Virus record (IMG/VR): IMGVR_UViG_2513237361_000013 | Origin: a virus | Taxonomy: Duplodnaviria; Heunggongvirae; Uroviricota; Caudoviricetes | Strand: one strand, 5' to 3' | DNA length: 36,955 nucleotides | In this document: piece after piece, positions 8,817 to 15,104 of the stretch | Layout of the letters: each line of letters starts with the position of its first letter | Position numbering within the stretch: position 1 is the first letter of the stretch | The notes under the pieces: model-generated | The model's input: the letters and a program-made list of their open reading frames with translations, nothing else | Databases searched by the model: none | Told to the model about the DNA's origin: nothing | Made by a program: the position numbers and the translations under genes

Positions 8817-9935
8817 TTACACTGAACAGAAACACAGCCCGTACCGGTAAATTCTGCCTGACGTCCGGACAACGACTGGCACTGAAGCGTCTTTCTGAGA
8901 GAGGAAGAGATCGTCCCCTGAACCTGAAACAAAGTGAGCGGGGGCTGTACTGGCATTATGCCCGGCTGGCAGAGAATGTGGGCGTCAGGGATTTCAGGAT
9001 GCTGTTGATGACCGGGCTGGACCGGGAGGTTCATAAAATGGAAGACCGACAGTATGGACAGTGATTTTTTATCCGCAGAGAGACAGATGCATGCGTTCAG
9101 TAAGGGGAGCGTGGACCGTATTTTCTGTTGCTCTGTTGTTGTCTCTGACGAAAAAAACTCTGAACCGTGCGGTGATAGGGCGGGCTTTCGGAAGTTAAAG
9201 CTATGCTGCCTCGTGATTTCCGGTTTGCAGTGAACGTGACGATGGCCCTGCTGTCTGGATGTGATGGTACAACAACTATTTTACATGGGGAGTCAGACTG
9301 AAAGGATACTGAACCAGTTGATTGATACCGGTGCTGGATTTGACCAGGATGATTCTGGATCCGGATATTCTGTGTTGTTGTTCCTGAAGTGCTTCCCGAA
9401 CAGTTATATAAAAATGGACAACAGTTTCACACAGGGCATTCTGAATAAAGATACACCCTGGTTGTTGTCGGACTGGCAGAGATGCAGGGTGTTACTATGG
9501 TAGGTGAAAGTGCGAAAATACAGGAATCAGTGAATTGTTTGTGTTTTCTGAAGGGAGATTGTCTGCAGGAATTTGAGAGAAGTCCGGAGAGGGGGAGTCC
9601 ATTTTGTTGTAAATATAATTAAAGTCGATCATGTAATTAGTTGGTTATTGCTGAAAAAACGAAACTTGGTGTGTCTGGGTGATTCTTTGATTGCTATCAG
9701 TTAGTGTCATTTTTTCAAAAAAATATGAATTCATGTTGGCCGGGGCATAACGATAATATCCGGAGGCAGTGATGTAATCTTTGACGAGTGCATACATCAG
9801 GTTGTGTAAAATTGACAGAAAGATCGTTTGTTATACATGCCAGTCAGCACTCCTGATAATCCACTGACGTTGTTAGCGGATGATTTCTTACTGTGATAAA
9901 GTAAAATCAATTTTATTCTAAGGAGGAGCACTGGC

Positions 9936-10667
9936 GTGAAGAAGGTTTGTTCTATTATTCTTGTCAATATACCATTTTGTATTGCCGGAGCAGAAATAAT
10001 TGAGCCTTTTAATAAAGGAGAGCTTTTGTTAATTGACTTCGTCGCGCGGGAGAGGTTTTTGCCATATATGAATTTTGTGTCAGAGATTTTTATCAGTGAG
10101 AAGTTATTGGCAAGTTACATGGAAAAACATGGTGACTTATCGGGAAAAGAAAGAGGGGGAAGTTCAGGGCTCATGCGTGTATCCTCTCCTGATTATGAGT
10201 TAATAAATTCTGTTTTTAGCTATATCAATACAAACTCCCTGCGTTCAGCTGCCTTTTATGAAATGATAATATTTTCATGTGTTTCTTTATTTTCAACGCA
10301 AAGAGGATTTGTTTCTTTTGTGTTAAAAACAGTGGGTTCAACAGTTCAAAAAGTGAAAAGAATTATATGCACGGATTTGTCAAAGGCATGGAAAATAAAA
10401 GAAGTGTGTGCGCTGATCCATATCAGTGAGAGCTTATTGAAGAAAAAACTGAAGGCAGAAAATTCGTCATTTTCCAGAATAATGTTAGACATGAGAATGC
10501 AGAAAGCACATTCTCTTATAAAAAGTGGTCACTCTGTTTCTCAAACCGCTGCTTTATGTGGCTATGCAAATGCATCGTATTTTATATGTCAGTTCAGAAA
10601 GTATTTTAAAACAACACCATTCAGATTCAGGGTTAAATTTGATAATAATAGTTTGAATGAGGAGTAA
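9936..10667 (+). CDS. AraC-family transcriptional regulator (island-encoded)
   Basis: 243 aa with a C-terminal AraC helix-turn-helix (TAALCGYANASYFICQFRKYFKTTPFRF). GTG start preceded by AAGGAGG. The gene is AT-rich. Confidence 0.8.
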   Translation: MKKVCSIILVNIPFCIAGAEIIEPFNKGELLLIDFVARERFLPYMNFVSEIFISEKLLASYMEKHGDLSGKERGGSSGLMRVSSPDYELINSVFSYINTNSLRSAAFYEMIIFSCVSLFSTQRGFVSFVLKTVGSTVQKVKRIICTDLSKAWKIKEVCALIHISESLLKKKLKAENSSFSRIMLDMRMQKAHSLIKSGHSVSQTAALCGYANASYFICQFRKYFKTTPFRFRVKFDNNSLNEE

Positions 10668-11062
10668 TAAGTAATAACCGGATGCACGGATACTGATGTT
10701 GTTGGTTGCTTTTTATTGTCAGGTGTTTTTGTGACAGGTGAATTGTTTGCAGGGTATTCATTATCCTCCTGGTTCAGAGCGGGATACAAGGGGGGGGCTC
10801 CCTTTAACGATGAGAAAAAGTTAACCATTCTTTTTCTCTTGTTTGTTTTTCATGTAGGATACGGTAATTTATACACGGCATGTAAGATGATTGCGATAGC
10901 ATTATCACTGAGAGACAGAATGAAGTTTAAAACTCAGACAACGTCAGGTTTTATGAGTTTTGTCACAATGATGGGACTCTGGTTTGTTGTATGGTTTGCT
11001 ACTGGCTGGTTACATAATTATTATTAAGGATATTACAGGATAAGTATTTTATATCTGAATAT

Positions 11063-12289
11063 ATGTCGGGGACTATAATAAAAATCAGAACAGGTGAAAA
11101 TGTTTTGTCAGCAACTATTCACCGCATTGAATGGCTGCTTGATACATTCCCTTCTGTCTGTTTGTCCTTTTCCGGAGGAAAGGACTCAACCGTACTCTTC
11201 CATCTTGTGGCGGATGTGGCCCGCAGGAAAAACCATCGTTTCTCTGTACTGTTCATTGACTGGGAAGCTCAGTACCAGTGCACCATTGAACATGTTCATA
11301 AGATGCGGGAAATGTACCGGGATGTGACAGATACCTTTTACTGGGTGGCCCTTCCCCTGACTACGGTAAACGGCGTCTCGCAGTTTCAGCCGGAGTGGAT
11401 ATGCTGGGAGCCAGGAGTGACCTGGGTTCGCCAGCCACCGGAAGAGGCCATTACAGACATGACGTATTTTCCCTTTTACCGGTATGCCATGACGTTTGAA
11501 GAATTTGTTCCGGCATTTTCTTCCTGGTTTGCCGGTAACCGGTGTGGAGTGGCAATACTGACTGGTGTCCGTGCTGATGAATCGCTCAATTGCTTTATGG
11601 GACTGGTATCTCAGCGCAAACTGAGATATGCAGATGATAAACCCTGGACCACAGCGTCGCCTGAAGGGTTTTATTACACCATGTATCCGTTATATGACTG
11701 GAAAGCCCGCGATATCTGGATATATAACGCCAGAACCTGTGCCATCTACAATCCTCTGTATGACCTGATGTACCGTGCCGGCGTGCCGTTACGCAACATG
11801 CGTGTCTGTGAACCTTTTGGTCCTGAACAGCGTAAGGGACTGTGGCTTTACCATGTTCTGGAGCCGGAAACCTGGGCCAGGATGTGTGAACGGGTGTCAG
11901 GGGCTGCCAGCGGGGCGCTTTATGCCAATGAGAGTGGTGCCTATTTTGCCCTGCGTAAGCGTATCACGAAGCCGCCTCATCATACCTGGCGTAGCTATGC
12001 GATGTTCCTGCTGGATGTGATGCCGGAAAGAACGGCAGAACATTACCGTAATAAAATTGCTGTCTACCTGCGCTGGTATCAGACGCGGGGCTTCCCGGAT
12101 GACATCCCGGATGAACAGGAGAATGACCTGGGGAGCCGGGATATCCTGTCCTGGCGACGTATCTGTAAGACACTCATAAAGAATGATTTCTGGTGCCGGA
12201 CCCTCTCCTTCAGTCCGAACAAACCCCGGCACTATGAACGTTATCTGCAGCGTATGAAAGAAAGAAGGAAGGAATGGGGGATTCTGTGA
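11063..12289 (+). CDS. PAPS-reductase-family PP-loop ATP pyrophosphatase-like protein (YbdN-like)
   Basis: 408 aa with the PP-loop motif SFSGGKDS near the N-terminus and several conserved Cys. It resembles E. coli YbdN-type proteins from memory. Confidence 0.8.
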   Translation: MSGTIIKIRTGENVLSATIHRIEWLLDTFPSVCLSFSGGKDSTVLFHLVADVARRKNHRFSVLFIDWEAQYQCTIEHVHKMREMYRDVTDTFYWVALPLTTVNGVSQFQPEWICWEPGVTWVRQPPEEAITDMTYFPFYRYAMTFEEFVPAFSSWFAGNRCGVAILTGVRADESLNCFMGLVSQRKLRYADDKPWTTASPEGFYYTMYPLYDWKARDIWIYNARTCAIYNPLYDLMYRAGVPLRNMRVCEPFGPEQRKGLWLYHVLEPETWARMCERVSGAASGALYANESGAYFALRKRITKPPHHTWRSYAMFLLDVMPERTAEHYRNKIAVYLRWYQTRGFPDDIPDEQENDLGSRDILSWRRICKTLIKNDFWCRTLSFSPNKPRHYERYLQRMKERRKEWGIL

Positions 12290-13611: not shown

Positions 13612-14063
13612 TGATTGCATGGCTGCAAGAACATTCTTATTAAATAAAAGTTTTCCTTAGGTGGGCGTGTATTCGTATTATGCTATCAGGAGAAGAGAGG
13701 GTAAGCATTGTCACTATCGGTTATTTAGAATTCTGATCTGTCACTATGATCCTTTATATCGTTCTGTCGGATCTATTTGCTGACAAGATAGTATATCCAT
13801 TATTATAATTGCAGACGGAATGCCTGGAGCACACAGGATACGGAGCCAGTTTCTTCCAGAGTGAGGCAAGTGGCGCGCAGGTTTGCGCTCGTATAAGCGC
13901 GGCTCCCGGGGATTGCTGATTATTTTTTACTATTTAATATTGCTGGCGCGGACACTTTATGTGTTACCGAAGTATGTGATCAGCAATTCTCGCAGAGAAG
14001 TAATAATGCCAGTTTTTCCACTCAGGTCTGGCATTATTACTGTCAGTTGTTTAACTCTTATAT

Positions 14064-14819
14064 TTATCCTTTTTTGGTCCAGCCATACTTTTTGAATACA
14101 AGGGCTGCTTCATCAGTTTGCAACCATGCTGCAAACTGGCGTGTTCCCGCATCTGCATCCTGACGTACAGCAATATTCATATCTCGCCAGATAACATAGT
14201 CCGGTGATATTTCAACTACATCTCCAATATCCGGGTGACTGGCTGCCCAGTCTGCCCAGGTAATCCAGACATCTGCCTCGGGTTGAGTTTCCAGTGCCTT
14301 ACGAGCTGTTCCGCTATTAGGTGCATATAAGATGATGTTTTTCCGGATACCAGCGACTGTTTCTATATTGCCTTTACGTCCGGCAATATCTTCCCAGACT
14401 CCTGTTCCTGATGTATTACTGGTGCCTCCGCCATCATTAACGATGACTCCAGTACCAGGTTTTGTCAGATCATCAATTCCCCGGATTTTTTTCGGATTAC
14501 CTTTTTTTACCAGTAAGATACTTTTACGCAGGTAAAGCGGCTGAACATCCTTCTCACTGAATCTATCTTTATGCTCCCGAATAATCGCCAAAGCAGATTG
14601 CTCGGAAGATCCAAACAAAATGTCTGCATTTTTTTTGGCCTCTTCATTCCATTTTTTTTGTGGGCCATAATGAACATTAACCGTGACACCGGTTTTTTTA
14701 GTATAAAGTTTGGCAGCATCGAGCAGAGCAGTGTGTGGACCTCCTGGCCCATATAAGTTGATATCCGCATATGCAGCAGAAGACATAAAAATCAAAAATC
14801 CTGTCAGCATGTTTTTCAT
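14064..14819 (-). CDS. orphan periplasmic solute-binding protein (ModA/PBP2-like)
   Basis: Signal peptide MKNMLTGFLIFMSSAAYA, then a fold-level resemblance to ModA-type binding proteins (C-terminal FAAWLQTDEAALVFKKYGWT). No permease or ATPase gene is adjacent. Confidence 0.65.
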   Translation of the reverse strand: MKNMLTGFLIFMSSAAYADINLYGPGGPHTALLDAAKLYTKKTGVTVNVHYGPQKKWNEEAKKNADILFGSSEQSALAIIREHKDRFSEKDVQPLYLRKSILLVKKGNPKKIRGIDDLTKPGTGVIVNDGGGTSNTSGTGVWEDIAGRKGNIETVAGIRKNIILYAPNSGTARKALETQPEADVWITWADWAASHPDIGDVVEISPDYVIWRDMNIAVRQDADAGTRQFAAWLQTDEAALVFKKYGWTKKG

Positions 14820-15104
14820 AAACAACACCCTTATTGGATATTATGTTCGTTGAAACATGTAAAACATTGCGTGTAAATCAATGTATATGCATTAACTAAA
14901 CTTAATTGCTTCATAGCTGATAAATCCACATTGTTTAATTGTCCGCATGTTCTCCTTATTGAAACTTCATTAAAGATCGGATTTTTATATTGTATTCACA
15001 CTCAAAATAAACAAACCTTACATTATGATTACATTTTTGTCATGATTCTGCCATTTACGCTTCATTGGCTGAATTCTTATCAAGAAAAAGATTAAGCCTA
15101 CATA

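Follow-up and report, generated by a model that had tools for sequence, protein, structure and literature searches.

Two kinds of locus described in Escherichia coli come closest to the one reported here. The first is the IbrAB island of strain ECOR-9, for which the citing literature (Sandt 2002, via PMC7649339 and PMC8065619) gives an overlapping ibrA-ibrB pair that was horizontally acquired and is linked to adhesin expression and to prophages; IbrAB has been reported to activate expression of the Eib adhesin (Sandt 2002, as cited in PMC7649339). The second comprises the cryptic lambdoid prophages DLP12 and Rac, in which a partial J gene persists and virion-assembly genes have been lost, the J remnant of DLP12 in E. 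coli C and B being joined to nohD. The stretch of DNA analysed here (the window) is the whole of IMG/VR virus record IMGVR_UViG_2513237361_000013, 36,955 nt of a tailed virus, and it resembles both: an overlapping and horizontally acquired ibrA-ibrB pair, 92-96% identical in amino acids to E. coli proteins annotated as IbrB-like and its partner and likewise linked to adhesin expression, is carried by a lambdoid prophage that has kept part of J. Unlike in the ECOR-9 island, however, the pair lies inside the prophage, between a YdeO-like AraC gene and a Paa-type gene, and unlike in DLP12 and Rac the virion module is nearly unchanged and the gap has been filled by foreign DNA.

The window is identical (100%) to NCBI sequence AEME01000001.1 (assembly GCA_000208565.2) of Escherichia sp. 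TW09308 (PMC3850674), an isolate of E. marmotae obtained at a freshwater beach in Michigan (PMC11546641). The reading that we favour, with a probability of about 0.6, is that of a true replacement, in which the tail-tip region of the TW09308 prophage gave way to a fragment from the flank of a fimbrial locus.

Comparison by blastn with four intact relatives of the prophage, those of KMi012 (L001), TUM1886 (L003), E275a (L020) and NA3664 (L052), showed that homology ends at 8690 and resumes at 15286, delimiting an island of 6,595 bp (8691..15285) with no homology to any of these relatives in that search. The island takes the place of about 3.3 kb, namely 1,998 nt of J, the whole of I and 715 of the 744 nt of K. 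An earlier note on this DNA, made from the sequence alone, had described a foreign island replacing the 3' part of K, all of I and the 5' half of J, and the blastn comparison did locate foreign DNA at that place, with the C-terminal remnant of J on one side and the beginning of K on the other. The mixed base composition claimed for it was also borne out, since the GC content, 42.8% overall, forms a mosaic of 32-51% by segment. However, the borders given, 8817 and 15104, were off by 127 and 181 bp: the stop of the J frame at 8817-8819 and the open reading frame (ORF) 15105..15314 both exist, as translation and the ORF list confirmed, but they are frame closures, the junctions lying at 8690/8691 and 15285/15286. 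The phage remnants at these junctions are the following.

7206..8690, minus strand: remnant of J, the last 494 of about 1,159 codons (43%), with Pfam domains Ig_GpJ_C and Phage_Tail_Tip.
8691..8816, minus strand: read-through of the J frame into 42 island-derived codons, up to the stop at 8817-8819 in translation.
15286..15314, minus strand: remnant of K, the C40/JAB tail-tip assembly protein; first 29 nt (MTQTESAILA), aligned with K of E275a and KMi012.

On the J side the loss extends up to codon 665, so that the 5' part is missing as claimed, amounting to 57% of the gene and not to half of it. The J remnant scored 598.7 bits against the NCBIfam lambda_TipJ model, whose cutoff is 1950, matched profile positions 792-1163 only and has no start codon ahead of a GTG at 8315. 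Likewise, the supposed 69-codon K fragment (ORF 15105..15314) contains only 10 codons of K, the rest being read-through into an antisense tnpB scrap and an AT-rich spacer, and it gave no Pfam match. When the K, I, J, L and Lom proteins of E275a were used in tblastn searches of the whole window, J residues 667-1132 (8690..7209) and an intact L alone were matched, whereas K, I and Lom found no counterpart and no second J appeared, so that neither an I gene nor an intact K or full-length J occurs elsewhere within the window. A complete gpK has about 247 amino acids with JAB/MPN and NlpC/P60 (C40) domains, gpI (Lambda_tail_I) about 190-200 and TipJ about 1,130-1,160; none of the three proteins of this gpK-gpI-gpJ tail-tip module is complete in the window. 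Since K, I and a full J are all missing, the gene content predicts that the encoded phage cannot assemble a tail tip from its own genes. The earlier note had reached the same conclusion, which agrees with the 99.8% identity of the rest of the virion module to the E275a prophage, where K, I and J are annotated at full length.

The right junction is authentic. Here a cut tnpB adjoins codon 10 of K, with a 2-bp microhomology (GC at 15286-15287), and an independent contig from read set SRR29904084, found with the 69-amino-acid K'/island ORF as a probe, spans 14154-15315 at 100% identity; the contig geometry suggests that the sister run SRR29904083 has the same end. In eight contigs from other runs the match to the island, at 100% in seven and at 99.5% in one, extends to 15287 and is followed by tnpB and not by K, one contig reaching 95 nt into tnpB past 15287. 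Because the identical island continues into tnpB in other samples, the tnpB'/K' fusion is, on these identities, a recent one, and the island exists elsewhere in an unfused donor state. The exact break points could be used as a lineage marker for TW09308-like E. marmotae.

At the left junction, J ends at 8690 and homology to a gene of a fimbrial locus begins at 8692, the A at 8691 matching neither, which leaves 0 bp of homology and a 1-nt filler (26-mer across the junction, GTGCTGACCAGAAGAAATGTCCGGTG). The word 'replaces' in the earlier note takes two biological junctions; the right one was demonstrated and the left one was not, and it is the authenticity of the latter that we infer. A true replacement is favoured since J' and K' stand in the order and on the strand of a single prophage, and since NA3664 unites the same tail-fibre arm (97.6%), J-I-K and the same virion module (99.0%) in one element, from which the window differs only by lacking 3,312 nt; both arms were found in one place in 46 E. 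coli genomes. It is further favoured by the adjacent icd'-ompT join, which at first appeared equally suspicious and proved to be natural synteny, and by the position of the break in J, which is not at a repeat-type boundary.

Under the replacement that we favour, a lambdoid prophage would have lost about 3.3 kb, from codon 10 of K through the whole of I to codon 665 of J, and a 6.6 kb fragment would have been copied or moved into the gap from the flank of a K88/F4-type fimbrial locus, both ends being joined by illegitimate recombination of the end-joining type. This might have occurred by one-step capture of a linear 6.6 kb fragment at a resected double-strand break or, alternatively, by insertion of a larger piece with flanking deletions afterwards. 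The break points lie inside genes on the phage side (two) and on the donor side (two), with 0-2 bp of homology; the island itself is cut on the left inside the gene that follows a fae-like operon and on the right inside tnpB.

Several observations weigh against a replacement and in favour of the reading that survives best beside it, which we regard as doubtful but tenable. According to this alternative only the right junction is biological, a single deletion or inversion having fused the flank of a K88/F4-type fimbrial locus, within a tnpB remnant, to codon 10 of K with no replacement by a cassette; the island would run on to the left into a complete fimbrial operon, 8692 onward would adjoin '...GAACTGAGGGC', and J'-tail fibre-appY-ompT would be a separate contig from the same or another prophage, set beside the island when the pseudo-molecule was built. 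A single fusion is one event, whereas a replacement with two junctions needs more. No independent contig covers 8690/8691. Apart from the source, a single metagenome scaffold, unrelated to it, is all that has the 118-amino-acid ORF adjacent to the junction or the 369-amino-acid J remnant; the metagenome scaffold L031 has the same J C-terminus and N gaps at the critical places. Exact-string scans of the JGI metagenomes and IMG/VR did not return the left-junction string; in these scans an island-internal 33-mer had no match in either collection, and the right-junction string had none in IMG/VR. In an independent draft genome of E. marmotae the edge of a contig falls at the position corresponding to 8700, at a distance of 9 nt from the junction, and several partial proteins of about 120 amino acids in the databases start at the same point. 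The gene at the left end of the island is multi-copy and highly conserved among its paralogues. A protein search with the N-terminal 67 amino acids of this gene (the 5' half missing from the window) missed known positives and says nothing for or against either reading. Moreover, of the four E. coli genomes inspected that have an ompT-appY tail-fibre arm, three (TUM1886, Ch1 and RM14516) combine it with a virion module of lambda type, different from the module of the window, and the fourth, E. coli C, has no virion module left.

The state of the source record weighs in the same direction. AEME01000001.1 has 4.8 Mb and is N-free, and it is made of joined-up draft contigs, collapsed repeats and plasmid pieces included. 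At 34371 the prophage stops within Rz; the last stretch of the window, 34372-36955, then opens with exactly 2,551 bp of F-plasmid leading region (DUF3560 and methyltransferase genes, 97-98% identical to IncF plasmids), and a probe made from the chimeric Rz/plasmid ORF was seen nowhere besides the source record. From 36923 an rrn unit begins which runs from 116 nt upstream of the 23S gene, in the internal transcribed spacer, to just past the 5S gene and lacks a 16S gene, the signature of a collapsed repeat contig. To the right of 5S, outside the window and up to about 14100 in record L024, come tRNAs, csrA, a split alaS, recX and a split recA. The abutment of Rz, plasmid, rrn and csrA-recA sequences shows AEME01000001.1 to consist of draft contigs strung together without gaps, and this, together with the nearby contig edge, means that 8690/8691 could be a contig join. 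Structural claims taken from such a concatenated record need confirmation at read level, which is the more useful practical lesson of this analysis.

Against a contig join, on the other hand, stands the fact that J' and K' are ordered and oriented precisely as within a single prophage, which would be a coincidence if the contigs were unrelated, and intact prophages that combine this tail-fibre/J arm with this virion module do exist. The icd'-ompT join, as noted, turned out to be natural, and the base at 8691 that matches neither parent is no less compatible with an end-joined junction than with a contig join. The possibility that the J break marks the boundary between the conserved and variable parts of J, as a repeat-induced contig end would, was considered and rejected, since the variable part starts about 400 nt further on.

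From left to right, the island contains the following features.

8692..9064, plus strand: 5'-truncated gene of a fimbrial locus (ORF 8696-9064, 122 amino acids), the 3' two-thirds of a gene whose full-length relatives have 189-213 amino acids.
9054..9659, plus strand: decayed EAL-domain gene; tblastn with the EAL protein of L044 gave four fragments in alternating frames at 46-75%, blastn 68-84%.
9936..10667, plus strand: AraC-family regulator, YdeO/GadX/AppY-like, with Pfam HTH_18 and HTH_AraC, in DNA of 36% GC.
11063..12289, plus strand: ibrA, full length, 408 amino acids, with Pfam PAPS_reduct PF01507 (4.6e-16) and DUF3440 PF11922 (2.2e-32).
12274..12927, plus strand: ibrB, ParB-like, 217 amino acids, overlapping ibrA by 16 nt (12274-12289).
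12943..13611, plus strand: predicted membrane protein of 222 amino acids, with a hydrophobic segment near residues 162-193.
14064..14828, minus strand: Paa/AcfC-family secreted binding protein (adhesin homologue), with Pfam SBP_bac_11 PF13531 (1.1e-33, residues 23-250).
14829-15209: spacer, 32% GC.
15210..15287, plus strand: tnpB scrap of the IS200/IS605 family (insQ-like), nt 739-816 of 1,209, at 91% nucleotide identity and 21 of 28 amino acids, forming the right edge of the island.

The donor of the left end can be recognised from the relatives of the first gene, which at full length sit after K88/F4-type (fae-like) fimbrial operons and before an EAL gene (records L044, L002, L045 and L046). 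The 122-amino-acid ORF is 98% identical to protein P0001, encoded between the fae-like operon and the EAL gene of L044, and at the nucleotide level the gene is 95% identical to L044 and 92% to L002, both alignments starting exactly at 8692. Another version with 122 amino acids, P0002, proved to be merely a frameshifted copy in a noisy assembly. The 129 nt at the 3' end of the gene (8940-9068) are identical in the window, L044 and L002, far above the surrounding sequence. The occurrence of this gene in several copies with such a very conserved stretch explains why all short-read (Logan) contigs of the island begin at 9039.

The AraC-family protein matched the NCBIfam YdeO model at 5e-48, below its cutoff, and fell under all curated cutoffs; it is 31% identical to the AppY of the window, and a search against all GTDB species representatives returned only distant Acinetobacter regulators. 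The 222-amino-acid protein had no match in Pfam, NCBIfam or PADLOC, and is 73% identical to the product of a truncated gene 3' of ibrB on plasmid L002. The gene at 14064..14828, which the earlier note had called an orphan binding protein, does encode a binding protein and is no orphan: as a member of the Paa/AcfC family it would be a putative adhesin, being about 82% identical in nucleotides and 86% in amino acids to O157 paa over its full length. Downstream of it, a perfect 14-nt hairpin (13999-14041) looks like a terminator.

IbrA is 96% identical over all 408 residues to its homologue in E. coli A41, likewise of 408 amino acids, and IbrB is 92-95% identical to proteins annotated as 'IbrB-like domain-containing', its Pfam ParB_N match being weak (0.0058) and below the gathering score. 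A PDB sequence search with both proteins returned no informative structure. The prophage has its own gene for a 408-amino-acid protein and its own ParB-like gene, which were considered as ibrAB paralogues and set aside, the former encoding TrkG and the latter being related by fold only. In every context examined ibrAB adjoins adhesin loci: F4-like fimbriae on an E. coli plasmid, Pix-like fimbriae together with DsbA on two chromosomes, and an inverse autotransporter on an E. fergusonii plasmid. The AraC-ibrA-ibrB stretch (10006-13009 in the window) is shared at 85% nucleotide identity by many E. fergusonii IncF plasmids, for example at 9001-11956 of pEF45-3; it has an inverse-autotransporter adhesin on one side there and the aerobactin operon on the other, and the pEF45-3 record leaves the AraC part unannotated. 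No eib gene was found in the window.

The cargo ORFs are full length next to their homologues, and their intact state, with no differences between samples, is in keeping with recent common descent and possibly with function, most likely in the regulation and display of adhesins. To judge from homology and neighbourhood, the AraC-type regulator, the IbrA/IbrB pair, the predicted membrane protein and the Paa-type gene probably still serve the host in surface adhesion and its regulation. In a bolder version of events, which we consider improbable, these genes would make the island a portable cassette for adhesin control, taken up in a single step when a double-strand break in a prophage was closed by end-joining, and IbrAB might switch adhesin or prophage genes through modification of nucleotides or DNA. 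Were it true, the locus would offer a natural case of microhomology-independent DNA capture in Escherichia, and a datable one since the donor-state and fused-state copies are still 100% identical.

It is very unlikely that IbrA and IbrB constitute an anti-phage or DNA-modification defence module and the island a defence cargo in a prophage hotspot. The N-terminal PP-loop region of IbrA does have a weak PADLOC match to BrxP (9e-07 over 65 residues), and pairs of PAPS reductase and ParB occur in phage and plasmid genomes (PMC4490671). However, no other BREX or defence component was found, PADLOC being silent on IbrB and its neighbours when the other six island ORFs were tested; none of the ibrAB contexts examined lies in a defence island, and the sole experimental report cited concerns the activation of Eib.

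That the island is a self-mobile element (an integrative island, a transposon or a composite bounded by insertion sequences) inserted by its own recombinase is already contradicted, for although a tnpB fragment of the IS200/IS605 family marks its right edge, this is a 78-nt internal piece with no TnpA, complete tnpB or element ends in the island, the ORFs of 8691-15285 include no integrase, recombinase or transposase in Pfam and NCBIfam searches, no target-site duplication, att-like repeat or terminal inverted repeat pairs its ends, both ends are cut within genes, and a 3.3 kb deletion accompanies the insertion. The short direct repeats for which the earlier note had proposed to search the junctions were likewise not found, there being neither direct nor inverted repeats at the island ends. 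Judging from these features the fragment is not a mobile element, and the mechanism of its joining is one that we infer.

The remainder of the window is organised as a lambdoid late region on the minus strand, reading from right to left Rz, trkG, a ParB-like gene, a TET-associated glycosyltransferase gene, terminase, portal, head, tube, tape measure (1,077 amino acids), M and L, followed to the left of the island by the J remnant, the side tail fibre, appY, ompT and an icd' pseudo-copy. Neither an Rfam family nor a tRNA gene turned up when the window was scanned for them. The early, lysis and integration genes are not in the window since the contig ends in Rz. The principal segments are listed below.

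1155..1375, minus strand: icd' pseudo-copy, a 50-amino-acid ORF with a weak Iso_dh match, marking the prophage end at the icd/e14 site.
1915-2868: ompT, cargo at the prophage end.
3118-3867: appY, cargo at the prophage end.
4425..7209, minus strand: tail-fibre arm, with a tfa remnant, ORFs of 97 and 92 amino acids, and the side tail fibre (5125-7209; Pfam phage_tail_N, 2.4e-68).
15286..34371, minus strand: late region or virion module (PHROG and Pfam assignments), aligning along 19,086 nt with the Rac-site prophage of E. coli E275a at 99.8% identity (32 mismatches, 4 single-base indels).

In E. coli 7CC, homology to the window starts from 1155, at an annotated partial isocitrate dehydrogenase gene, and the order icd'-ompT-appY-tail fibre-J-I-K-L is the same, which assigns the element to the icd/e14 site and identifies ompT and appY as cargo at its end. 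Beyond icd', positions 1-1556 hold an ASCH-domain gene and small genes of the DUF1317 type, with emrE and ybcL homologues further left; in other samples it is e14-like genes (GIY-YIG, invertase), and not ompT, that come after the ASCH and DUF1317-type genes. The mixture of genes at this left end suggests tandem or rearranged prophage remnants. No lom lies between J and the side tail fibre, the J stop overlapping the fibre start (7206-7209); lom is present at this interval in NA3664, E275a, TUM1886 and 7CC and absent in E. coli C and RM14516.

The earlier note had described the head and tail-shaft genes as apparently intact, a description that is overstated in two respects: the sequence ends inside Rz, and relative to E275a it contains indels at 19994, 20013, 22710 and 33672 which split trkG (33590-33832 and 32358-33584) and fuse two head-tail genes into a 259-amino-acid ORF (22323-23102). 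These four indels are probably sequencing errors and not signs of pseudogenes, since alaS and recA, just outside the window in that record, are split as well. Immediately upstream of the genes for terminase, 30504-32220 on the minus strand encodes a ParB-like protein (263 amino acids) and the TET-associated glycosyltransferase (PF20691; PHROG beta-glucosyl-HMC-alpha-glucosyltransferase). By its annotation this pair may represent a phage DNA-modification module, in a type of prophage that several hundred genomes of E. coli carry; a query including the virion module was covered to at least 80% in 660 E. coli genomes. The core genes of E. coli and E. marmotae are expected to be far less identical than 99.8%. 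Since the identity of the 19 kb module far exceeds that expectation, it points to a recent transfer of phage between species. The window also documents, outside E. coli but within Escherichia, a virion module 99.8% identical to a widespread E. coli prophage.

The main value of this analysis resides in a corrected anatomy of the locus, a dated tnpB'/K' fusion and the warning about the source assembly; its import beyond annotation is small. Among the known systems, the Rac-site prophages of NA3664 and E275a share the L-M-H-tube-head-terminase-trkG module with the window at 99.0-99.8% nucleotide identity and differ from it in having a full K (247 amino acids), I (about 190-200) and J (1,132-1,159), in having lom and no island, and in their location at the Rac site with sitABCD as cargo. 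The DLP12 prophage of E. coli C (L047) has likewise retained its tail-fibre arm with ompT/appY cargo, but it keeps 949 codons of J and has lost the whole virion module; a J truncation common to E. coli B/C and the window was considered and discarded, because the break points differ. The Paa/AcfC genes of prophages and islands in enterohaemorrhagic and enteropathogenic E. coli resemble the island gene in their SBP_bac_11 fold, their length of about 251 amino acids, their location in mobile DNA and the 86% amino acid identity to Paa, whereas the paa of O157:H7 is a different allele which lies in the early region of a prophage beside hokD. Compared with these systems, the locus adds a further example to two kinds already described, the decaying lambdoid prophage and the IbrAB adhesin-associated island; all of its families are known, and it illustrates one more route by which a lambdoid prophage can be disabled with its cargo persisting.

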